Of a DNA stretch of 64,000 nucleotides, positions 20,361-31,034 are shown one piece after another. How positions within the stretch are numbered: position 1 is the first letter of the stretch; every line of letters starts with the position of its first letter. The DNA is taken from positions 211,959 through 275,958 of the forward strand of contig NZ_JAVXZY010000003.1 of assembly GCF_032337115.1 (NCBI RefSeq), in the 5' to 3' direction. The DNA comes from Roseateles aquae. Lineage in GTDB: Bacteria > Pseudomonadota > Gammaproteobacteria > Burkholderiales > Burkholderiaceae_C. The notes under the pieces were generated by a model, which saw only the letters and a program-made list of their open reading frames with translations, did not search any database and was not told where the DNA came from. Both the position numbers and the translations under genes were made by a program.

Positions 20361-20400
20361 GCAGACCCAAGAGCATCCATCTACCGGGAGCGAAGACACC

Positions 20401-22002
20401 ATGACCCAGCAACTGGATCTGCCGGATATCCAAGGCAATGTGATCCGCCCCTACGGCCGCTTCGGCTATCCGGTCGGGCGCTATGTGTTCTACAACATCA
20501 AGGACTCGACCCTGGGCCGGGCCTTCGTTGCCGCACTGACTGCCAGAGTGACCACCTCGGTCGACTGGGGGCCAGGGCCGGACCAACGCCCGCAGCCCGA
20601 CTGGACGCTGAACCTGGCCTTCAGCTACCAGGGGCTGAAGAACCTGGACCTGCCGGTGGCCTCGCTGATCGGCTTTTCGCCCGAGTTCGTGCAGGGCATG
20701 AAGGACAGGCATGACATCCTCGGCGACAACGGCCCCAGCGCGCCCGAGCACTGGGACCCGATCTGGCGCGAGAACCGCGAAATCCGCGAGCGCGATGTGC
20801 ACATCTTTGTGCAGATCAATGCCCGCACGCCGGCGCTGCGCGAGGCCGGCTACCAATGGCTGCAGGCGCGGGTGGCGCAGTACGCCGAGGGCGTGAGCCT
20901 GCTGTCAGGCCATCGCGCAGACGAAGGTGCGTTGATCGACTATCAAGACGTCGAGATCATCTTCGAGAACGGCAAGCCCACCTCCAAGGAGCATTTCGGC
21001 TATACCGATGGCATCGGCGACCCGGCCTTCGAAGGCATGCCCAATGCCCCCGACTACGTGCTGGGCCGCGGCAAGCAGATGGCCGATGGCAGCTGGGCGC
21101 CGCTGGCCACCGGCGAATTTCTGCTCGGCCATATCGACGAGGCGCAGGAATACCCGCCGGCGCCGGACCCGCAGCTGCTTTCGCGCAATGGCAGCTATAT
21201 GGTCTATCGCAAGCTGCATGAAAACGTCGCCAGCTTCGAGGCCTATCTGGACCAGCATGCCGAGGCCTATGCGCGCAGCTGTGGCCAACATGGCGCCAGC
21301 GCCGCTGAACGGCGCGAGCTGCTGGCGGCCAAGTTCGTCGGCCGCTGGCGCGACAACGGCGCACCGCTGGTCAAGGCGCACGATTTCGCGGCCAAAAAGG
21401 TCTTCGATGCCCAGCTGGCCGCGGCCAACGATGCCGAGCAGGACAAGCTGCTCAGCAACTGGACCTATGACGAAGACATGAGCGGTGGCAAATGCCCGTT
21501 CTCGTCCCATATCCGCCGCATCAACCCACGCGCCTCTCTGCAGATGATCCGTGACCCCGGCGACAAACCCGGCTCGCTGAAGGTCAGCACCGATGCCTTC
21601 GACACGCCCGGTGCACTGAGCAACCGCCGCCGCGTGCTGCGCCGCGGCCTGCCCTATGGCCGCGTCAAGGACCGCAGCCGCAACGACGGCAACCACGGCA
21701 TCGTCATCATGATGCTCAACGCTGACATCAACCGCCAGTTCGAATTCGTTCAGCAGCAGTGGATCAACTACGGCAACGACTTCAAGGCCGGCAACGACAA
21801 GGAAATCCTGCTCGGCAACCACAGCGTCGATGAACGCTACCCGAGCAAGGCGGTGCTGCAGGTTGAGCCCGACAGCGAACATGCGCCTTACTTCCTCAGC
21901 AAGATCCCCCGCCTGGTCGAAACCCGCGGCGGCGAGTACTTCTTCGTACCCAGCATGACGGCGCTGCGGATGATCGCGAAGGGGCTGATTGATCCGACGT
22001 GA
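20401..22002 (+). CDS. DyP-type (dye-decolorizing) haem peroxidase, long form (533 aa)
   Basis: DyP hallmarks are an N-terminal DIQGNVI, the GxxDG motif (FGYTDGIGDP), GSYMVYRKLHENV, a proximal-His region (CPFSSHIRRINPR), RRGLPYG, and the C-terminal NRQFEFVQQQWIN...RGGEYFFVPS. The start was trimmed to MTQQLDL at 20401. Confidence 0.8.
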   Translation: MTQQLDLPDIQGNVIRPYGRFGYPVGRYVFYNIKDSTLGRAFVAALTARVTTSVDWGPGPDQRPQPDWTLNLAFSYQGLKNLDLPVASLIGFSPEFVQGMKDRHDILGDNGPSAPEHWDPIWRENREIRERDVHIFVQINARTPALREAGYQWLQARVAQYAEGVSLLSGHRADEGALIDYQDVEIIFENGKPTSKEHFGYTDGIGDPAFEGMPNAPDYVLGRGKQMADGSWAPLATGEFLLGHIDEAQEYPPAPDPQLLSRNGSYMVYRKLHENVASFEAYLDQHAEAYARSCGQHGASAAERRELLAAKFVGRWRDNGAPLVKAHDFAAKKVFDAQLAAANDAEQDKLLSNWTYDEDMSGGKCPFSSHIRRINPRASLQMIRDPGDKPGSLKVSTDAFDTPGALSNRRRVLRRGLPYGRVKDRSRNDGNHGIVIMMLNADINRQFEFVQQQWINYGNDFKAGNDKEILLGNHSVDERYPSKAVLQVEPDSEHAPYFLSKIPRLVETRGGEYFFVPSMTALRMIAKGLIDPT

Positions 22003-22062
22003 GGCTGTCTGTCATTGGGCACTGCCGGGCCGCGCCGCCATGGCTGTGATCGCGCGTCAAGC

Positions 22063-22542
22063 ATGAGTCTGTTCCTGTCTGCTTGCAAAGACGCCTTCCT
22101 GAATATGTGGGAAGGGCGGAGTGTGTTTGAGTTGCGCGCGGCCAGACGCGCTGCCATCGTCGCTGCAAGCCCTTGTCGGATTGCTGCCGCTGGGCTGCTC
22201 TGGCCCGCGACCGAAACGGTCGACGCCGCCCTCGTTGATCCAGCGACGCGATTTCCCCACACGGCGCAAGCCCATCACGGGATCGCGGACAGCCTGCGCT
22301 GCGCCGCTGATGTCGTCTGGCTTTCTGTGTCCGCGGGCGAAGCCCGACGTTACTTGGATGCCTGTGAGGGCGTCGACCTTGCGATCGAGCGCCTCAAGAC
22401 TTGCTTTGCCAAGCTGGAGGCGATCTTCATCGAAGATGACTTCCTCAGTGACTGGGAAATTGCGCGGATCGCTGCAAGCGTGGCTCCCATTCGTCTGGAA
22501 TGGCGACAGGGGCTTTGCGTCGATGGCCGGTATGGGCGTTAG
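22063..22542 (+). CDS. Hypothetical protein (atypical codon usage, low confidence)
   Basis: 159-aa ORF in a locally lower-GC stretch with many A/T-ending codons, unlike neighbouring genes. No family was recognised. Its stop lies directly against the left palindromic repeat. Confidence 0.3.
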   Translation: MSLFLSACKDAFLNMWEGRSVFELRAARRAAIVAASPCRIAAAGLLWPATETVDAALVDPATRFPHTAQAHHGIADSLRCAADVVWLSVSAGEARRYLDACEGVDLAIERLKTCFAKLEAIFIEDDFLSDWEIARIAASVAPIRLEWRQGLCVDGRYGR

Positions 22543-22545
22543 TTT

Positions 22546-22654
22546 CGTAGGGCGGGTCATTAGACCCGCGCTGCGCCCTAGCAAATAGCTGGTCAGTGAC
22601 GTGCTATTGAAAAAGGCGGGTTACGCCTTTGGCTAACCCGGCCTACGTGGCTCG
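22546..22654. repeat. Composite palindromic repeat, copy 1 (hairpin GCGGGTC-N3-GACCCGC plus hairpin GGCGGGTTACGCC...GGCTAACCCGGCC), ends CGTAGGG...CCTACG
   Basis: About 85% identical to a second copy at 24605-24738. The two copies are in direct orientation and bracket a two-gene segment. Confidence 0.7.
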
Positions 22655-22659
22655 ATGAC

Positions 22660-23313
22660 TCAGACCGTCTCGACCTGCCTGTCCAGCTTTTGCTGCGCCC
22701 AGTAGCCGAAGTTCACGCTGATGTTCTCGTCCAGATTGGCCAGGTCCGCGGCCTGCTGGCTGAACAGCTCCATCATCTGCCCGAGCAGATTGAACTGCTC
22801 TTCGGTCCATTTGGACATGGTGTTCGGCTCGCCGAGGTCGCGCTGGTGTTGCAGCAGGCTGGCCCAGCTTTGTGCCCATTGCTGCAGCAGCTGCTGGCTC
22901 TGCTGGCGGCTGGCTTGCTGCAGTGCGTTCAGCTCGTCCAGCGTCTGCAAGGGTTGGGTGTTCCAGCTCCAGACGGAGGCGGCGAGCACCGCGTTGTCGC
23001 GGCTGCGCTGGACCCAGGCCGCCCAGGGGCGCAGACCGCGCAGCGGCAGCTTGATGTGGACGCTGGCCCAGTCGGCCCAGTTCGGCAGCTCGGCAGTGTC
23101 GGCCTGCGCGATGCCAGTTGGCGACAGCAGCGCGGGCAGCTGCCTCCCGGCTGGCAGCGACACAAGGGCGTGGGAACTGGCCTCGTCATCAACCTCGGTG
23201 AGCGATTCGGATGAGTGCCAGTCGCCACTCTCGGGAGCGGTCTCGTCGATGTCTTCAAAGTCGGTTGAGTGGGTCGAATGGGCCGTGCTGCTGCGGCGTT
23301 TGGACGTGGACAT
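22660..23313 (-). CDS. Hypothetical Gln/Trp-rich protein (possibly PHA-granule associated)
   Basis: Starts at an ATG (MSTSKRR) 7 nt after a GGAG RBS. Acidic N-terminus and Q/W-rich C-terminus. Co-directional with and downstream of the PHB-depolymerase-family gene. Function is a guess. Confidence 0.45.
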   Translation of the reverse strand: MSTSKRRSSTAHSTHSTDFEDIDETAPESGDWHSSESLTEVDDEASSHALVSLPAGRQLPALLSPTGIAQADTAELPNWADWASVHIKLPLRGLRPWAAWVQRSRDNAVLAASVWSWNTQPLQTLDELNALQQASRQQSQQLLQQWAQSWASLLQHQRDLGEPNTMSKWTEEQFNLLGQMMELFSQQAADLANLDENISVNFGYWAQQKLDRQVETV

Positions 23314-23382
23314 GAGCTTCTCCAATCAAAAGGGGGGTGAGGAACCAGTCTGTCGATCAGCGTGCTGCCAGCGCTCAGGCGC

Positions 23383-24456
23383 TCAGGCGCCCAGGCAGCT
23401 GAGCATGTCGTGGATCGCCTTGATCTGCACGGCCTGCTGCGAGAAGTAGTCAGGGGCCCTGGCGTCGGCGGCGCTATAGCCCCACCAGTCCCAGCAACCA
23501 TCGGGGTTCTGGGCCTTGTTGTTGTCGCGCCCCTCGGCCTGGGGATAGAGCACGATCAGATGGTTGCTGTCTGCCATCTGGTTGTAGCCGGTGCTGGTGA
23601 CGTAGCGGGTGCCGTAGGGGGGCTGATTGGCCTTGTCGAGGCGGCCGTAGAGAAAGTCGGTATAGGCGTAGCCCTGCTTGCAGCCGTGCAGCGCGATATG
23701 CACGCGCGCTGGCGCGCCGTCGAGCACGGCCTGCGGGATGTAGATATAGCCCAAGCGGCTCATGCTGGCGCGGTCGCGGTCGCCAATGAAGGGGCTTTGA
23801 TCGAAGCGCAGCAGCTGGCCGGTGAGCCGCTCGGCCGGAGCTTGGAGGTCGGGATAGAGATGGCGCAGGATGTCGTGCGATTGCATGAAGCCGCCGTTGT
23901 TCAGGTAGGGCGGGCAGTTCTGCGACAGCTCGGAATCCTCGGGGTTGCTGGTGATCAGCGAATGCCCGGCCGGCACATTGTCCACATAGGCCAGGCGCTC
24001 GCCGCTGATGCCCAGCGCCTCGTAGAAGGCGCGGGTCTGCGCCACCACCAGCGGATGCACGACCTGATCGCGGCTGCCGGTGAACAGGTAGACACGCTGG
24101 GACGCCAGATGGCTGAGCGGGTCGATCAGCCGGTCGGCCTCGGCCTCGCGGGCCAGCTGCAGGCAGCGCCGGGCGCTGGGTGCCGTGCTCTCGGTCAGCG
24201 GTGCCATGCCGATCTGCATGGCGGTGAGGATGCAGGCATCCTCGGCCAGCGGCGCCGCAGCCGGAAACAACTCGGCGCAGCGATACGGCCCGCCGGCGAC
24301 GATGCCGGCGCCAACGAAGCTGGCCGAGTGCGCAAGGTGCAGCTGCACCGTCATGAAGGCGCCCGAGGACAGGCCGGAGACCGAGCTTTGCCCGCGCTCC
24401 ACCTTGAGCTTGAGGGTGGACAGATCGAGCACCTCGGACGAAGAAAATGCTGTCAT
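23383..24456 (-). CDS. PHB-depolymerase-family esterase (alpha/beta hydrolase)
   Basis: C-terminal motifs LHGCKQGY, NHLIVLYPQAEG and NPDGCWDWWGY are typical of the esterase/PHB depolymerase family. The start was trimmed to MTAFSSS and there is no signal peptide. Confidence 0.7.
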   Translation of the reverse strand: MTAFSSSEVLDLSTLKLKVERGQSSVSGLSSGAFMTVQLHLAHSASFVGAGIVAGGPYRCAELFPAAAPLAEDACILTAMQIGMAPLTESTAPSARRCLQLAREAEADRLIDPLSHLASQRVYLFTGSRDQVVHPLVVAQTRAFYEALGISGERLAYVDNVPAGHSLITSNPEDSELSQNCPPYLNNGGFMQSHDILRHLYPDLQAPAERLTGQLLRFDQSPFIGDRDRASMSRLGYIYIPQAVLDGAPARVHIALHGCKQGYAYTDFLYGRLDKANQPPYGTRYVTSTGYNQMADSNHLIVLYPQAEGRDNNKAQNPDGCWDWWGYSAADARAPDYFSQQAVQIKAIHDMLSCLGA

Positions 24457-24604
24457 ACACCGCTCCTTGCGCGATGGAATCGAAGCGAAGCGAATCGAAG
24501 CAAGGTCAGGCCTTGGAGACCCAGGGCAGCTGCTTCGTACTGGAGCGTATGGTGGACTGCGAGACTTGTCGTTTTGATGACGCCGCAATGACGCGGCTAC
24601 GCAG

Positions 24605-24738
24605 TAGGGCGGGTCAATCGACCCGCGCGGCACCTTTGGCTCGGCTACTGTTCGTCACAAGGGCTTCCGACGCGTACCGGTAAATGACGTGCCGTTGGGG
24701 AAGGCGGGTTACGCCGTTGGCTAACCCGGCCTACGCCG
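24605..24738. repeat. Composite palindromic repeat, copy 2
   Basis: Shares GTAGGGCGGGTCA(AT)CGACCCGCGC and ...GACGTGCCGTTGGGGAAGGCGGGTTACGCCGTTGGCTAACCCGGCCTACG with copy 1. The middle section is longer. Confidence 0.7.
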
Positions 24739-24779
24739 TGACACGGTGCGTGACCGCGCCAGCGAACGCGCAGCTGCGC

Positions 24780-25796
24780 TCAGATCGTCCAGTCCACCGG
24801 CTCCCGCCGCGGCACGCCGTTCTGCGCATGCCTGAAGGTCGAGATCGCCGCATAGACGATCTTGCGGGCGCGGTTGATGCCGCCCAGCGGCCGGTGTTCA
24901 GGCAGGCTGTGCCAGGGCGTGAAGGACAGGTTCTCGCCGAACACGCGCTGGGCCGGGCTGTCGAACTGCTGGGCCGGGATGCGGATGGCGGCCACTTTGC
25001 GAAACGTCGATAGCGCCTCCGGCCACTCGATGCTGGGGTCTTCGATCGGCATGGCGGCGGCATCGGTCTGCAGCTGCACGGCGAAGTCGTAGACCACCTC
25101 CTTGCGGGCCAGCTGGCGGACCATGGCCTCGCGCAGATAGTCGTCGCCAGGTGAATCGGGAATCGTGTCGGTGGCGGGCGCGCGCGGGATGGCCGAGTAC
25201 TTGACGGCCCGCGTGCCCAGCAGATACGGCGTGGTGCTCCAGTAGCGCAGCTGCAGCGGATTGGCATGTTTCTTCATCGAGCGCAGCAGATTGCCGGCCA
25301 CATGCCAGTGGGTCAAAAAGAAGCAGAGCTTGGCCCACAGGCTGCCGGTCAAGGCCTTGATCAAATCGTCGAACTCCTCGACATCGCGGGTCACGAAAAC
25401 CGGCGTGCTGATGACGATGAAATCCTGCGTGCGCTCCTGCCGCTCGGCCTCCAGCAGCTTGTCGCCGGGCACGCCCATCAGCTTGATGGCCATGCCGCGG
25501 ATATCGGCGTTGATGTCGGGCTGAATCGTGCCATCCTGGTTGGAAAAACGTATCCAGGCCGGGTAGGTCTTGCCGGGCTCGGCGAACACGCCAATGCGCA
25601 GTTCTTCCGGCAGATCGGGTTCGACGATGAACTCGGCGCGCACCAGCCCGTGCATCTTGGGATGGGCATCGCGGCGCATCGGGCCGCCGGCGTTGTCGCG
25701 AACGATCTTGGCCTGCAGGCGCGCCGCCAGATCGTTGATGCACTGGGCTTCATTGGCGGGTGGAGATTCCAGCGCGGAGAGTTTGCTATCGCTCAT
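24780..25796 (-). CDS. Catalase-related haem protein (small catalase-like peroxidase/allene-oxide-synthase-like family)
   Basis: Distal-His region RRDAHPKMHGLVRAEF as in catalase-core proteins, in a 338-aa protein that is too short for a true catalase. The start was trimmed to MSDSKLS. Confidence 0.55.
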   Translation of the reverse strand: MSDSKLSALESPPANEAQCINDLAARLQAKIVRDNAGGPMRRDAHPKMHGLVRAEFIVEPDLPEELRIGVFAEPGKTYPAWIRFSNQDGTIQPDINADIRGMAIKLMGVPGDKLLEAERQERTQDFIVISTPVFVTRDVEEFDDLIKALTGSLWAKLCFFLTHWHVAGNLLRSMKKHANPLQLRYWSTTPYLLGTRAVKYSAIPRAPATDTIPDSPGDDYLREAMVRQLARKEVVYDFAVQLQTDAAAMPIEDPSIEWPEALSTFRKVAAIRIPAQQFDSPAQRVFGENLSFTPWHSLPEHRPLGGINRARKIVYAAISTFRHAQNGVPRREPVDWTI

Positions 25797-25946
25797 GCAT
25801 TCATCCTCGATCTGTGCTGCCCGTTCAAGTGGGCGGAGTATGTCACTCGCTGCCTGCGGCTGCCAGCGCCACCTCGATGATCGGCAATCTTGCGGATGTG
25901 CTGCGTGCCCGGCTGTGTCAGAGTCCAGCGTCGGGAGGCTTTGTTT

Positions 25947-27236
25947 ATGACGAATTGCTCTGTGCGGCTGTCTACAACCCTGCGGTCTTTGCTGGCGCGC
26001 TTCATCGCTGCCGCGCTGTTGCCGGCGAGCCTGCTCTGCCATGCAGCGGGTGCCGAGCCCTCGGCCACTGCCGCGTCGAACCCTCAGGCTTCCGCCAGCG
26101 CGGCCCAGGGTGACAGCAAGCAGGGCAACAACGAGAAGGGCAATAAGGATTCGAATCCGGAGGGCAAGAACAGCGGGCCCAATCCAGCGCCCAACCAAGG
26201 GCCCAGAAAACCTGAAGCGCCGGCAAGTCCGGCGAGCGCAGCGACGCTGCAACTGCATGCTGCGCCGGCGCAGCTGCGCAGCTGGCCTCTAGCGGTGTTT
26301 GTGGCTACTGACCTGACGGCAGCGGAGCAGCCTGTACTGAAGCTCCATTTTGGTCATTCGGTACGCACCGCAGAAGACAGCTATTGCGTGTTGGAAAACC
26401 CCCAGGTGCAGCGACATGCCAAATGGATGGATGGGCCTGCAACGATGCGCGGAGTGGAAACTCAGAATGCTGGTCCACATGTTTCAACAACGACGGAGCT
26501 GAACGGAACCCTGCTGCTCTTCAATGCGGAACAGAACACTGACAAGTGCCATATTCCTCTGAGCAATTCGGTGACGCGAGTGCGGCCTCAGCTGCTCTGG
26601 CAGCAGCCGGGCTGCACGGATTGCAGCGTGATCGCCGAGCAGCCCCTGCTGCTGGGGACGCCTTTGATAGCTGCCGGCTGGAGTGCATTGCTGTTGATTG
26701 GCTTTACCGGCCTGCTCAAGCTGCTGTGTGGGCGCCAGCACCGCTTGATCGAACTCTTGCTAAAGGATGGCAGGCTCTCGCTGGCCAAATGGCAGATGGC
26801 CTTGTGGACCTATGCGATCGGTTTCGTGCTGCTCTACATCTTCTTGCTCCGGCTCGATTTCAGCAGTCCACCGGAAACGCTCTACCTCTTGATGTTCTCG
26901 GCAACGGCAACCGCCTGGATCAGCCGCCTTGCCGGCCCGCCGCTGCCACCGGCAGGGGCTTTGGCAATGCCCCTGCCGGAGACCCGTGGCGCCGAGCTGC
27001 CTGTTTGGCGCTGGAGCGATCTGCTGTCGGCGCCGGACGGCGATCCCGAGGGCGCCCGACTGGCATTGAGCCGAGCGCAGATGTTTTTCTGGACTGTGGT
27101 CTTGGCCTTGGCATTTGTCGTCAAGAGCATGTTGCTGTCTGCCGTTTGGAGCATTCCTATAGAGGTCCTGGCGCTGATGGGGGTCAGCCAACTTGGCTAC
27201 CTCGGCGGCAAGTATGGGGGAGGCCTCGCGCGCTGA
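25947..27236 (+). CDS. Hypothetical secreted/membrane protein (signal peptide, N/P/K/G-rich disordered region, Cys-containing periplasmic domain, 4 C-terminal TM helices)
   Basis: The RBS GGGAGG precedes ATG at 25947. The signal peptide is ...ASLLCHAAG. Four hydrophobic helices follow residue about 230. No family was recognised. Confidence 0.55.
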   Translation: MTNCSVRLSTTLRSLLARFIAAALLPASLLCHAAGAEPSATAASNPQASASAAQGDSKQGNNEKGNKDSNPEGKNSGPNPAPNQGPRKPEAPASPASAATLQLHAAPAQLRSWPLAVFVATDLTAAEQPVLKLHFGHSVRTAEDSYCVLENPQVQRHAKWMDGPATMRGVETQNAGPHVSTTTELNGTLLLFNAEQNTDKCHIPLSNSVTRVRPQLLWQQPGCTDCSVIAEQPLLLGTPLIAAGWSALLLIGFTGLLKLLCGRQHRLIELLLKDGRLSLAKWQMALWTYAIGFVLLYIFLLRLDFSSPPETLYLLMFSATATAWISRLAGPPLPPAGALAMPLPETRGAELPVWRWSDLLSAPDGDPEGARLALSRAQMFFWTVVLALAFVVKSMLLSAVWSIPIEVLALMGVSQLGYLGGKYGGGLAR

Positions 27237-27322
27237 CCTGCGGTGTGCTGGCAAATGGGGATGGCCAGCGCCGGTGCCCACGCTAGAGTCAGGGCCTCCT
27301 ATGCATGCAAGGAGTCCCAGCC

Positions 27323-28366
27323 ATGCCCAGCTATCAATCCCCCGGCCTGACCCTGAGCCTGAACTGCACGGCGCCGCGCGACACCATCGTCGAGCTGCAG
27401 CGTGATCTGCGCGCCTTGGGCTATCTGCGCGGGGGCATCGATGGCAGCTTCGGGCCGGGCACACAGGCGGCGGTGGCGGCCCTGCAGTACGATCTGCTAC
27501 ACAACGATGGCAGTTCCAAGGGCGGCGACGGCGCGGCGCCGGTGGCCATCAAGAGTTTCAACGGCGCGGGCGGCGTGGCGCCGGTGGCGGCCGTCACCGG
27601 CGTGTTCGATCAGTCGCTGGCGGCCTGCCTGGTGGCGCTGCGCGGCGATACGCGCATCCCCACGCTGCCGGAGGCGCAGGACCCGGCGGCCGAGAACGCC
27701 CGCGCGATGGCCGCGGTGGCCAACAGCCGCAGCACGGTGGCACCGACGCCCTTCATCCTGGCCATCGTCAAGCAGGAAAGCAGCGGCCAGCATTTCCAGC
27801 TGCCCACCCACAGCAGCAGCGACAGCTTCATCACCGTCGGCCTGGACCGCAACAATGCCGCCAGCCCGCAGCAGATCACCTCGCGCGGCTTTGGCCTGGG
27901 CCAGTACACGCTGTTCCATCACCCGCCACGCGCCGAGGAGGTGGCCGACTTCATGCTCGATCCGGTGCGCAATGTCGAACGGGCGCAGCAGGAGCTGCGC
28001 GACAAGTTCGATCACTTCGTTGCCGGGCCGAGCGACACGGCCGACGACCGTCTGGCCGAGCACCCGCTGATCAGCCTGCGCCTGTGCCGCTATCAGCCGA
28101 GCGACAGCCGCTATATGCGCGACTGCGCCAACTGCGCGCGCGCGGTGCGCACGCTCACCCTTGGCGTTGGCACGCCGTTTTTTGCCGGCGCCAGCGGCAG
28201 CTATCAAACCACGCAGTACTACAGCACGCTGCCCTACCTGAACGTGCCGGACCGGGCCGAGTTCCTCTGCGACTGGCCCTATGCGGTGCGGCGCTACAAC
28301 GGCTCGGGCGTCAATTCCTTCCACTACCAGACCCGCGTGCTGCTGAACCTCGCAGCGCAGGCGTGA
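27323..28366 (+). CDS. Peptidoglycan-binding-domain protein with a lytic-transglycosylase (SLT/lysozyme-like) domain, no signal peptide
   Basis: RBS AAGGAG. The N-terminal PG_binding_1-like repeat reads ELQRDLRALGYLRGGIDGSFGPGTQAAVAALQ. The SLT-like motifs are AIVKQESSGQHFQ and SRGFGLGQYT. Confidence 0.6.
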   Translation: MPSYQSPGLTLSLNCTAPRDTIVELQRDLRALGYLRGGIDGSFGPGTQAAVAALQYDLLHNDGSSKGGDGAAPVAIKSFNGAGGVAPVAAVTGVFDQSLAACLVALRGDTRIPTLPEAQDPAAENARAMAAVANSRSTVAPTPFILAIVKQESSGQHFQLPTHSSSDSFITVGLDRNNAASPQQITSRGFGLGQYTLFHHPPRAEEVADFMLDPVRNVERAQQELRDKFDHFVAGPSDTADDRLAEHPLISLRLCRYQPSDSRYMRDCANCARAVRTLTLGVGTPFFAGASGSYQTTQYYSTLPYLNVPDRAEFLCDWPYAVRRYNGSGVNSFHYQTRVLLNLAAQA

Positions 28367-28388
28367 ACAAGAAACTTTGGAGCTTCCC

Positions 28389-29375
28389 ATGTCCTTCGGC
28401 GTCATCATCGATGTGGCCATCGGCCTGATCTTTGTCTACCTCTTGCTGGGCCTGGTCGGCTCGGCTGCGCAGGAGGCCTGTGCCAGCCTGTTGAACTGGC
28501 GCGGCAAGCATCTGCAGCAGGGCCTGCGCGCACTCTTGGCCCACGAGGGCTTTGGCGGCAAGGCCGGCAACTGGCTGTTCGAGGCGGTCAGCGGCCATGG
28601 CATGCTGTCCACGGCCGGCGGCACGCGGGCGCCGTCCTATGTGGCGGCCGGCAACTTCGGCATGGCGCTGATCGAGTCGCTGATGGATGGCTCGCAGGCG
28701 CCGGTGTTCACGCAGGTGGAACGCAGCGTCGCGCAGCTGCCCGCCGGGCGACTGAAGCAGGCGCTGACGGCGCTGCTGAACCAGGCGGGCGGGGATCTGG
28801 ACAAGTTCCGCGGTGGCGTCGAGCGCTGGTTTGACGACGGCATGGACCGCGTCAGCGGCGCCTACAAGCGCTTCTCGCAGAACTTCATGCTGATCTTCGG
28901 TTTCGTGATCGCCTTTGGCGGCAATTTCGACACCATCGAGATGACCAAGAAGCTCTGGGCCGACCCGGTCGCCCGCGCGCAGGTGATGGAACAGGCCAAG
29001 ACCTTTGCCAAGGAGCATCCGGATGGCGTGGCGCCGGCTCCTGCTGCGGCGGCGTCGAGCGTGGCGGCAGCGCAAGTCGCGAGTGGTGCGAGCGCTGCAG
29101 CGGCCAAGCCAGCCGCCGCCGAGCCCAAGTCGCTGCGCGACACCGTGGCGCCGGTGCAGGCGGCCTTTGATCCGGTCAAGCAGCTGCCGCTGCCTTTCGG
29201 CTGGCCCAATGGTTTTGACTGCGCGGCCTTCTGGTCGCTGAGCAAGCTGCTGGGCTGCGCGATCACCGCGCTGGCCGTCGCGCTGGGTGCGCCGTTCTGG
29301 TTCGACACGCTGCAGAAGTTCCTCAATCTGCGGGCGGCCGGGCCGAAGCCGGCGAAGTCGGACAGCGTGGCTTGA
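28389..29375 (+). CDS. Hypothetical membrane protein (3 TM, Ala-rich linker)
   Basis: Starts 22 nt after the previous stop, behind a GGAG RBS. N-terminal TM VIIDVAIGLIFVYLLLGLVG, a central TM, and a C-terminal TM. No family was recognised. Confidence 0.5.
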   Translation: MSFGVIIDVAIGLIFVYLLLGLVGSAAQEACASLLNWRGKHLQQGLRALLAHEGFGGKAGNWLFEAVSGHGMLSTAGGTRAPSYVAAGNFGMALIESLMDGSQAPVFTQVERSVAQLPAGRLKQALTALLNQAGGDLDKFRGGVERWFDDGMDRVSGAYKRFSQNFMLIFGFVIAFGGNFDTIEMTKKLWADPVARAQVMEQAKTFAKEHPDGVAPAPAAAASSVAAAQVASGASAAAAKPAAAEPKSLRDTVAPVQAAFDPVKQLPLPFGWPNGFDCAAFWSLSKLLGCAITALAVALGAPFWFDTLQKFLNLRAAGPKPAKSDSVA

Positions 29376-29393: not shown

Positions 29394-30851
29394 TCAGTGC
29401 TTGTGCGCCTCGGGCTGCAGCTTGCGCAGGGTGTCGGCCAGCTTGAGCGACTGGCGCAGCTCGGCCAGCGTGCCCGAGCGGCCATGCACGCCGACGATCA
29501 GCTGCACCGGCAGGGCCTCGCGCTGGATCAGCTGATCCAAGTCCTTGCTCATCGCGAAAGCGGCCGGCACCGGGCCGACATCGGGGATGTAGAACAGATC
29601 GCCCTGGAACAGCGCGCCGCAGGCACTGTCAAAGGCGACCAGTGATTCGTTGGCATGGCTGTTGGCCAGTGGCATCAGCCGGATGCGGCGGTCGCCAAGG
29701 TCCAGCTCATTGACCTCGCGCAGCTCGCTGACCCGCGCCGCCAGCGCCTCGCCGTGCTGGCGGCGTACAGCCTGCGTGGCCTCGGGGCCGGCCAGGATCT
29801 GCAACTGCTCGCTGGCGAAGGCCGGCAGCCCGGCAATGTGGTCACGGTGCGTGTGCGAGATGAGCACATGACTGACCGGCCGCCCCGGCGCCAGCTGCGC
29901 GATCTGCGCGCGCACCTGATTCGCCTCGGCAACGCTGACCGGCGCGTCATAAACGACGATGCCGCGCTCGCCGATCGAGAAGGCGCTGTGGTAAGACGAA
30001 GCCGCGCCATCTACGCGGTAGCAGCCCGGCCCGATGGGCGTGGCACGCAGACCGCTCGCAGCCGTGGCTTCCACATAGCCGGCCGGCAGATCGAACACCC
30101 CGGGCAGCGGACCGGCCATGGTTTGCGCCTGCAGCTGCCAGCGCACCAGCGTCTTCTCGGCGCGTGACTCGCTGATGCGGCGCGGCTGGCGCAGGCCATC
30201 GGCGAGCGGCTGGAAGTCGGCATAGTCATAGCGTCGGCTGGCGCTGATGGCGGCACGCGGCTCGCCCGTGCCGGCGTCCAGCAGCAGCTGGGCCGGGCGG
30301 CCGGCCAGATCCTTGAAGTCCAGCTGGCTCGCGCCCGCTGCGGGCCGAAGGCCCTGGCTGGCGGCCAGCTCCAGCAGCAGCGCCGGTGCGAGGAACTGCA
30401 GCTCGGCCAGATCGGCGCGTGCGGCCTCGGCGTTCTTGCGCAAGATCTCCGTGCCGTTGCGCCACTTCAGCAGGTCCACGGTCGCGCTGCCGTCGGGGCC
30501 GCCGGTCTGCAGAAAGCTGAACTGGATCGGGCCGGGGTACTGGCTGCCCGTCACCAGCCGGAAGCGGCCATCGCGATCCAGCAGCAGCGTCTGGCTGACG
30601 GGCACCGGCACCTCGGCCTGTGATGGCCGCGGCGCCTGCTCGCCGACCAGGCGCTCGCCGCTCATCGCCAGGCTCAGCAACTGCCAGCGGGCGGATGGGC
30701 TGGCCGCTTGCTGAACCGGCGTAGTGCCACTTGGCGCAGGCTCGGCTGCTGCGGCAGGCAGGCCGGCGAGGGCCAGGCAGACGGACAGTAGCTGGGGCAG
30801 CAGGCCGCCAGTCAGGCGGGGCGGGGCAGGCAGGCGTGAGAGGTGCTTCAT
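29394..30851 (-). CDS. Secreted MBL-fold metallo-hydrolase with an N-terminal domain of unknown function
   Basis: Signal peptide ...LALAGLPAAAAEP and the HxHxDH motif (ISHTHRDHIAG) in the C-terminal half. The start was trimmed to MKHLSRL. Confidence 0.65.
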   Translation of the reverse strand: MKHLSRLPAPPRLTGGLLPQLLSVCLALAGLPAAAAEPAPSGTTPVQQAASPSARWQLLSLAMSGERLVGEQAPRPSQAEVPVPVSQTLLLDRDGRFRLVTGSQYPGPIQFSFLQTGGPDGSATVDLLKWRNGTEILRKNAEAARADLAELQFLAPALLLELAASQGLRPAAGASQLDFKDLAGRPAQLLLDAGTGEPRAAISASRRYDYADFQPLADGLRQPRRISESRAEKTLVRWQLQAQTMAGPLPGVFDLPAGYVEATAASGLRATPIGPGCYRVDGAASSYHSAFSIGERGIVVYDAPVSVAEANQVRAQIAQLAPGRPVSHVLISHTHRDHIAGLPAFASEQLQILAGPEATQAVRRQHGEALAARVSELREVNELDLGDRRIRLMPLANSHANESLVAFDSACGALFQGDLFYIPDVGPVPAAFAMSKDLDQLIQREALPVQLIVGVHGRSGTLAELRQSLKLADTLRKLQPEAHKH

Positions 30852-31034
30852 GGTGGCGCCGATTATCTGCACCCGCTTCGCCTTGGCTCCGTGCTTGAAG
30901 TCAGCCCCCGCACTTACTTATGTGTTCCTGATGCAGCCGGGAGGACAAACGCGTCTGACGAGGCGGGAGCTGTGCCCACCTCGGGCGATGCAGCGGCGCC
31001 GGGCGGTGCCGCGCAGAACAACAGGAGGACAACA

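Follow-up and report, generated by a model that had tools for sequence, protein, structure and literature searches.

Introduction

Holins are typically ~60–150 amino acids (aa) long and usually poorly conserved. To our knowledge, few examples of holin-dependent release by a type 10 secretion system (T10SS) are known, and all of them involve recognisable phage holins. T10SSs release proteins in dependence on a holin and a peptidoglycan hydrolase, as described for ChiWXYZ of Serratia, TtsA of Salmonella, and Yersinia entomophaga (PMC10109510; PMC10847048). An open question is how leaderless hydrolases and toxins exit Gram-negative cells by means other than a classical secretion system. Here, we analyse three adjacent genes, termed A, B, and C, in a 64,000-nucleotide (nt) stretch of the Roseateles aquae genome (assembly GCF_032337115.1, contig NZ_JAVXZY010000003.1, positions 211,959 to 275,958 of the forward strand; “the window”), to which all coordinates, intergenic gaps, and ribosome-binding motifs of this locus refer. 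B encodes a putative wall hydrolase without a signal peptide and C a membrane protein, and we propose, with about an even chance of being right, that the two constitute a chromosomal holin/endolysin-like (T10SS-like) pair for release or autolysis.

The B–C Gene Pair

The three genes lie on the plus strand: gene A (25947–27236; 429 aa) encodes an orphan protein with a signal-like segment and ~4 hydrophobic helices, gene B (27323–28366; 347 aa) a leaderless protein that combines PG_binding_1 with a divergent, family-1-like lytic transglycosylase, and gene C (28389–29375; 328 aa) the conserved partner of B, an all-helical membrane protein with three predicted transmembrane (TM) helices. A, B, and C each have a 100% identical counterpart among the NCBI proteins of Paucibacter sp. 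APW11. A first-pass annotation of the locus had noted three tightly spaced, co-directional genes, each with a ribosome-binding site, and coordinates and motifs agree with it: the intergenic distances are 86 nt (A/B) and 22 nt (B/C), and Shine-Dalgarno-like motifs (GGGAGG, AAGGAG, and TGGAG) are located 8–10 nt 5' of the starts of A, B, and C, respectively. Terminator-like sites or hairpins were sought in both gaps, and none was found.

The sole Pfam match of B at E ≤ 1 is PG_binding_1 (aa 20–56; ~nt 27380–27490, plus strand); the Pfam SLT profile does not match at this threshold. AlphaFold2, supplied with 56 homologues, yields a confident model (predicted local distance difference test score, 94.8) with a lysozyme-like fold, and the corresponding domain is encoded at ~nt 27740–28363 (plus strand). 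E152, S153, Q194, T196, N326, and G327 are invariant in the 56 aligned B sequences, and G191, G193, and Y325 are nearly so (≥90%). In our reading, these residues make up three motifs known from family-1 transglycosylases (ES, GxGQxT, and YNGxG); the motif ES...GLGQYT is present in B, and the codons of the catalytic pair, Glu152-Ser153, occupy positions 27776–27781 (plus strand). Four cysteines (255, 268, 271, and 316), which include a CxxC motif, are likewise invariant in this alignment. Hydropathy scanning of B reveals one internal hydrophobic segment (aa 88–106) and none at the N-terminus. Neither a signal peptide nor a lipobox for periplasmic targeting was found in B or its 56 aligned homologues, none of which carries an N-terminal extension. 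Pfam, AlphaFold2, and hydropathy thus agree with the earlier description of B as a PG_binding_1 protein with an SLT/lysozyme-like domain and no signal peptide. From fold and motifs, we infer that B very probably is an active peptidoglycan lytic transglycosylase. B homologues are rare and unevenly distributed, with 147 confirmed matches in 185,579 species representatives, and their range comprises Pseudomonadota, Acidobacteriota, Gemmatimonadota, Methylomirabilota, Nitrospirota, Nitrospinota, Myxococcota, and others, at ~50–60% identity.

We compared 87 loci that carry B, i.e., the window and 86 others. C is adjacent to B in 28 of the 87, mostly in Pseudomonadota, with gaps of −4 to +55 nt (median, 11 nt), and in alphaproteobacterial genomes the gene after B encodes a C homologue of 46–49% identity. 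Judging from this linkage, B and C are a conserved unit. Of the three-gene co-occurrence that the first-pass annotation had suggested examining, only the B–C part was recovered; A never joins the pair at any of the 86 other loci.

Lipolytic enzymes recur beside the pair in relatives. In 13 loci, a patatin gene (570–650 aa) lies 3' of C, often overlapping it, and the GxSxG and DGG motifs of the patatin are intact; cultivable organisms with B–C–patatin include Rhizomicrobium electricum DSM 21034 and Mesorhizobium sp. BR1-1-16; at L062, B is directly followed by another patatin, which brings the loci with a patatin beside B to 14 altogether. A Tle1-like phospholipase (PF09994) follows B in 5 loci, and at L007 a gene for a Lipase_3 and DUF6765 protein is located divergently, 5' of B. 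Patatin, Tle1-like, and Lipase_3 partners belong to three unrelated families, and none has a signal peptide. The partner set drawn up in the first-pass annotation was hence incomplete, as a leaderless phospholipase recurs beside B elsewhere and is absent from the window; tblastn found neither a patatin nor any other lipase in its 64 kb, and a lipase partner at another position of this stretch was rejected accordingly. Most non-proteobacterial B loci have lineage-specific neighbours only.

Three observations concern the integrity of the pair at single loci. In an Acetobacteraceae metagenome-assembled genome (MAG; L014, 10978–11284), fragments of C in two frames lie between B and the patatin gene, and C appears to have decayed. 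In a long-read MAG (L019, 10800–11100), two frameshifts produce a false B–C fusion of 678 aa as a single open reading frame (ORF); we rejected this fusion as Rosetta-stone evidence, since correction of the frameshifts restores separate B and C genes, and the artefact calls for caution when such inferences are drawn from long-read MAG assemblies. The small ORFs 3' of B in C-less loci were considered as alternative holins and rejected, as most of them do not encode membrane proteins; hydrophobic segments are absent from the c5 family, for example, and L087 is the only C-less B locus with a 3-TM neighbour.

Membrane Protein C and Its Partners

C is characterised by an invariant GAPFWF motif, an Ala-rich linker, and a basic C-terminal tail, which in 65 homologues contains a mean of 5.2 K/R per 29 residues. 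A Kyte-Doolittle scan calls two helices, TM1 (aa 5–27; ~nt 28401–28469) and TM3 (aa 284–303; ~nt 29238–29297), on the plus strand like the whole gene. TM2 (aa 162–183; ~nt 28872–28937, plus strand) falls below the threshold of the scan and was assigned from the sequence and from a long helix (aa 137–177) in the AlphaFold2 model. The earlier description of C as a 3-TM protein with an Ala-rich linker is therefore upheld for the linker and, by the scan, for two helices, and its third helix depends on this reading of sequence and model. Positive-inside counts over the 65 homologues place the N-terminus outside, loop 1 (aa 28–161) inside, loop 2, which is variable and Ala/Pro-rich, outside, and the C-terminal tail inside. 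The predicted topology would thus comprise an external N-terminus, a cytoplasmic helical domain of ~135 aa, a periplasmic Ala/Pro-rich linker, and an internal basic tail.

The C family is large. Among 1.84 billion representatives (clusters at 50% identity), a search with its profile returned 17,372 members at E ≤ 1e-3 and 8,314 at E ≤ 1e-30, with lengths of 264–578 aa (328 aa in the window). C has no profile match in Pfam, NCBIfam, PADLOC, or PHROGs and no fold match in the Protein Data Bank (PDB) or BFVD. The fold and profile comparisons that the first-pass annotation had proposed thus return a lysozyme-like fold for B and, for C, neither a structural match in PDB and BFVD nor a holin family in PHROGs and Pfam.

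Beyond B, members of this family are found next to a variety of wall hydrolases. Distant full-length homologues (29% identity, E 1e-32) are encoded on plasmids of Hymenobacter and Caballeronia, where a gene for an Amidase_2 and PG_binding_1 protein begins 1 nt after C; the Hymenobacter protein matches the endolysin family phrog_880 (E 1.5e-54), and on the Caballeronia plasmid a GH19-like PG_binding_1 endolysin (phrog_181) also follows C. A signal peptide was found in none of these lysins. In a metagenomic sample of 80 C loci, 38 have a co-directional neighbour, and in 9 of these 38 a leaderless wall hydrolase lies beside C (B in 5 loci; GH25 with PG_binding_1, GH24 with M15_4, GH24 with SH3, and an Rv2525c-like protein in 1 each). 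In one metagenomic locus, a GH24 lysozyme and an M15_4 peptidase flank C, and at L110 a gene for an M15_3 peptidase precedes B. Fusions occur as well: P0272 joins C to CHAP (a weak match), PG_binding_1, and an Rv2525c-like domain, and P0279 and P0369 join C to PG_binding_1. All peptidoglycan hydrolases found beside C lack a signal peptide. We read C as holin-like because a single membrane protein family is associated with signal-less lysins of many non-homologous kinds, and this pairing is the strongest evidence on C.

Further neighbours of C are not wall hydrolases. Among the 38 metagenomic loci with a co-directional neighbour, C lies beside a leaderless phospholipase-C-like enzyme (PF04185) in 4, a leaderless sedolisin-like peptidase in 3, and a secreted protein of ~310 aa in 5. 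Over the loci as a whole, this ~310-aa family (no Pfam match) follows C in at least 6 (L095, 7997–8950; L115; L133; L149; L153; L165) and is a second common partner type of C. Large proteins without a Pfam match are encoded directly after C at L008 (9943–12597; 884 aa) and L102 (7031–9580; >849 aa) and may represent further types of effector or cargo. On a Hymenobacter canadensis plasmid (L099, 372–9976), C and its amidase endolysin stand among degradative genes, namely for a non-specific endonuclease, a secreted protein of 1203 aa, and a leaderless 983-aa trypsin-like and S8 peptidase; the set looks like an arsenal of lytic enzymes. A C homologue of 47% identity occupies a prophage accessory slot in Ralstonia pseudosolanacearum (CP103852.1; L093, 7001–9689), flanked by two ParB/N6_N4 methyltransferase genes and a terminase gene and followed by a gene for a 506-aa lipoprotein without Pfam or PHROG match; this slot could serve lysis or superinfection exclusion. 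On plasmids of Rhizobium (L097, 1–5921) and Paracoccus (L098, 1–5924), C homologues of 28–29% identity are located at the end of a conserved operon that encodes 3–5 hypothetical proteins and a vanadium-dependent haloperoxidase, beside toxin-antitoxin genes and without a wall hydrolase.

Gene A, a Lineage-Specific Insertion

In a hydropathy scan, protein A shows a hydrophobic, signal-like segment at its N-terminus (aa 12–33, ...HAAGA/EP), a low-complexity tract, and ~4 C-terminal hydrophobic helices, in line with the signal peptide, N/P/K/G-rich tract, and four C-terminal TM helices noted previously. Among 5.8 billion proteins, the only homologue besides A itself is P0122 (38% identity over aa 102–424). 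The N/P/K/G-rich tract (aa 36–100) is missing even from this protein. The gene of P0122 lies between dehydrogenase-like and ABC transporter genes, and genes for cytochrome oxidase are found at a greater distance upstream; neither B nor C is located near it.

No A homologue was found in the 86 other B loci. In the three most closely related loci (metagenome contigs L090–L092; B 78% identical), the catalase-like gene is followed by ~200 nt and then B, and A is absent. When these loci are compared to the window by blastn, homology stops at 25742, within the catalase-like gene, and restarts at 27303, 20 nt before the start of B, such that a segment of ~1.56 kb that carries A (25743–27302, no strand assigned) corresponds to a divergent intergenic region of 236 nt in L090–L092, which lack ~1.3 kb in comparison. 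The GC content at third codon positions (GC3) of A is 0.72, vs. 0.89 for B and 0.87 for C. Because A is absent from relatives, because homology breaks at 25742/27303, and because GC3 is lower, A is to be classed as an insertion specific to this lineage and placed in the divergent promoter region of B. The segment has displaced the ancestral promoter region of B, and A is probably co-transcribed with B–C and now probably supplies their transcription. At 25743–27302, we saw neither flanking repeats nor mobile-element genes to which the insertion could be attributed. On comparative grounds, A is no part of the conserved module.

Genomic Context and Database Searches

The module is surrounded by genes of other types, which encode DyP peroxidase, catalase-like, metallo-β-lactamase (MBL)-fold, SPFH, globin, glyoxalase, and acyltransferase proteins. 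On its left, a DyP-type peroxidase (20398–22002, plus strand), two proteins without a Pfam match (22660–23325 and 23383–24633, minus strand), and the catalase-like gene (24780–25796, minus strand; 338 aa, truncated; Pfam Catalase, E 2e-7) make up an oxidative-stress-flavoured cluster (20398–25796). The catalase-like gene is not part of the module; as the divergent left neighbour of B that is kept in the closest relatives, it provides a synteny anchor, with 86% DNA identity to L090–L092. The 23383–24633 protein, too, is syntenic with the B–C locus in these relatives. On the right, a convergent MBL-fold gene (29394–30872, minus strand; Pfam Lactamase_B_2) ends 18 nt past the stop of C and marks the boundary of the module, to which it does not belong. 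As an MBL-fold gene also lies next to a C homologue on plasmid pVF1, such a gene was considered as a conserved partner of C and rejected, given that the two MBL-fold proteins are not orthologous and share only the HxHxDH motif. The first-pass annotation had reported no phage, secretion-system, or flagellar genes nearby, and indeed none is located within ~8 kb of A-B-C. A riboswitch or other RNA element at the locus was considered and rejected, as an Rfam scan of the window between positions 20 and 35 kb matched no family.

By tblastn, B and C are both without a match among the genomes of 50,697 isolated phages. IMG/VR contains two loci with C and one 44-residue fragment of B, and the PHROG matches of B are weak and confined to its peptidoglycan-binding domain. 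With no hit in phage genomes, next to none in IMG/VR, no PHROG for C, and no BFVD fold match for C, a phage origin of B/C is not demonstrated. A, B, and C have no significant match in PADLOC-DB v2, and we found no paper that describes the B family or the C family; membership in a known defence system was rejected on the lack of a PADLOC-DB v2 match and of any link found in the literature.

Possible Functions of the Pair

The holin/endolysin-like idea already raised in the first-pass annotation is retained for B and C, whose linkage and lysin adjacencies favour it, and given up for A. In the release or autolysis pair that we propose, B would be made and accumulate in the cytoplasm in the absence of an export signal, and C would be the dedicated inner-membrane partner that times the access of B to the wall, either by a holin-like membrane lesion or channel or else by exporting or tethering B. 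A leaderless phospholipase, where present, might be released as cargo in a T10SS-like manner or might carry out a third, membrane-destroying step of lysis. Regulated autolysis or the release of leaderless hydrolases would result, and the window would hold a lipase-free version with the orphan gene A in front of B. The lesion or export function of C we infer from gene context only, and trigger and purpose of the pair are likewise conjectural.

Several observations weigh against this proposal. C is far larger than holins, contains a large conserved soluble domain, matches no holin family, and shows a degree of conservation that far exceeds the one usual for holins. Both proteins are missing from isolated phages and nearly missing from IMG/VR, C is absent from the 10 kb around B in about two thirds of the B loci, and for most members of the C family, the partners are different ones or none is obvious. 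Some partners of C carry a signal peptide, i.e., the ~310-aa family, a GH3 enzyme, and the Ralstonia prophage lipoprotein. The fusions of C to PG_binding_1 would fit better with a periplasmic C-terminus, in conflict with the positive-inside counts, and spanin-like genes (a small lipoprotein and type-II membrane protein pair) were not found in or beside the module.

Other functions have to be weighed against the same data. In an abortive-infection or cell-death defence, C, or the PG-binding/lysozyme-like domain of B, would sense muropeptides or damage to the envelope caused by phage and free self-destructive, leaderless effectors (wall hydrolase, phospholipase, or peptidase) to kill the infected cell; the mechanism would be shared with the release or autolysis pair, and trigger and purpose would differ. 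A conserved core with swappable effectors (patatin, Tle1-like, Lipase_3, phospholipase-C-like, and sedolisin-like enzymes and many lysins) is what such a system might look like, and the patchy spread over many phyla at ~50% identity (147 of 185,579 species representatives) suggests horizontal transfer. C homologues in the Ralstonia prophage slot and on plasmids beside toxin-antitoxin genes, as well as neighbours with a KAP NTPase, a caspase-like domain, and TIR_2 at single loci each, point in the same direction. However, PADLOC-DB v2 matches none of the three proteins, the window and most other loci lie amid housekeeping genes rather than in defence islands, the strong conservation of B would be unusual in a conflict protein, and no link was found in the literature, so that we consider a defence role unlikely. 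The housekeeping-like setting would be in keeping with C as a scaffold or regulator in the membrane by which wall hydrolases are positioned or inhibited (compare FtsX-EnvC-amidase, or anti-holin and immunity proteins), with B exported by other means for ordinary remodelling. The PG_binding_1-only fusions P0279 and P0369 look like anchoring rather than lysis, the soluble domain of C is large, well conserved, and structured, and some partners of C have normal signal peptides. Yet a scaffold would leave the export of B unexplained, whose N-terminus resembles neither Sec nor Tat signals, and the peptidoglycan hydrolases beside C are all leaderless; B is also rare and patchy, unlike a core remodelling enzyme, which makes a scaffold quite unlikely.

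B might instead stay in the cytoplasm and bind peptidoglycan precursors or recycling products, such as anhydro-muropeptides or lipid II, as a sensor that signals to C or to the lipase. The lack of an export signal in any B homologue would agree with this, and the invariant cysteines 255, 268, 271, and 316 with their CxxC motif are compatible with a cytoplasmic zinc site. Nevertheless, neither the catalytic Glu-Ser nor the remaining SLT family-1 motifs vary among homologues, which argues for catalysis, and other partners of C are bona fide lysins with strong matches to endolysin PHROGs; a sensor is in our view highly improbable. The first-pass annotation, finally, had taken A, B, and C together as a single three-component envelope module, and tight spacing on one strand without a terminator between A and B indeed makes a single transcript plausible. 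This module was rejected and has hardly any chance of being correct: A is missing from the 86 other B loci as well as the three closest relatives, in which the catalase-like gene abuts B, its sole homologue lies away from B and C, and its codon usage deviates from theirs. When conservation of all three genes together is applied as the yardstick, A drops out, and the tempting three-gene annotation is corrected to a B–C pair preceded by an unrelated orphan insertion.

The release or autolysis pair may be one instance of something larger. We hold it possible, albeit doubtful, that the C family is a new and widespread class of large membrane proteins outside phages, holin-like or exporters, that release leaderless enzymes, with B–C(–patatin) as a highly conserved, horizontally spread sub-type. 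The enzymes would then comprise at least eight classes of wall hydrolases, at least four classes of phospholipases, and peptidases across many phyla, and their purposes could include regulated autolysis, predation or competition, and abortive infection. Should wall hydrolases and phospholipases indeed be released under the control of C, this would constitute a new and common route of regulated lysis or enzyme release in soil and freshwater bacteria and would provide a testable function for thousands of hypothetical proteins. The window contains a reduced version, without a lipase and with an orphan insertion, and the value of the locus lies in the large, unannotated C family to which it leads.

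Comparison With Known Systems

B resembles the family-1 lytic transglycosylases (Slt70, MltC, MltE, and MltF; Pfam SLT) in its lysozyme-like fold, the Glu-Ser pair, and the GLxQ-like and YNxG-like motifs. It differs from them by a large Cys-containing insertion and has neither a signal peptide nor a lipobox, in contrast to the housekeeping enzymes, which reside in the periplasm or are lipoproteins. The combination of an N-terminal peptidoglycan-binding domain with a transglycosylase is shared with the phiKZ lysin gp144. The lysis pair of RcGTA, rcc00555/rcc00556, which was considered as a candidate homologue, is described as a Rhodobacterales-restricted locus flanked by cycJ; no Rhodobacterales genome occurs among the B loci.

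The general arrangement of B–C, a leaderless muralytic enzyme next to a membrane protein in a small operon, is that of phage holin-endolysin systems (lambda S105/R; phiKZ gp144). C further has TM helices and a charged C-terminal tail and lies adjacent to a signal-less lysin; with three TM helices, a predicted N-out/C-in topology, and a basic tail, it is reminiscent of class I holins, although it contains large insertions. The pairing of the C family with many non-homologous lysin classes is a classic holin signature. By contrast, C is 2–4 times larger than holins (328 aa vs. ~60–150 aa), includes a conserved soluble domain of ~135 aa, and belongs to no described holin family. Phage lysis cassettes also differ in that B and C are chromosomal and not accompanied by spanins, that B precedes C, and that B is highly conserved across phyla.

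As in T10SSs, a membrane protein is paired with a leaderless wall hydrolase at B–C in a domesticated, non-phage setting, and leaderless phospholipases and peptidases encoded alongside would be candidate cargo. The leaderless hydrolase and the non-phage context are observed at the locus, C is a putative holin, and the candidate cargo (patatin, Tle1-like, and Lipase_3 enzymes) is found in relatives and not in the window. We found no kinship in sequence or fold between C and the T10SS holins or between B and ChiX/TtsA, spanins are lacking at B–C, and the papers found do not describe phospholipases as substrates of a T10SS.

The mycobacteriophage LysA/LysB/holin cassettes differ from B–C in that LysB is cutinase-like, as opposed to patatin, Tle1-like, or Lipase_3 enzymes, and the hosts of B–C are Gram-negative and the loci not phage-borne. 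Their three-part logic is nonetheless analogous to that in relatives of the B–C locus: a PG_binding_1 wall hydrolase, a membrane protein, and a lipolytic enzyme that might act on an outer lipid layer.

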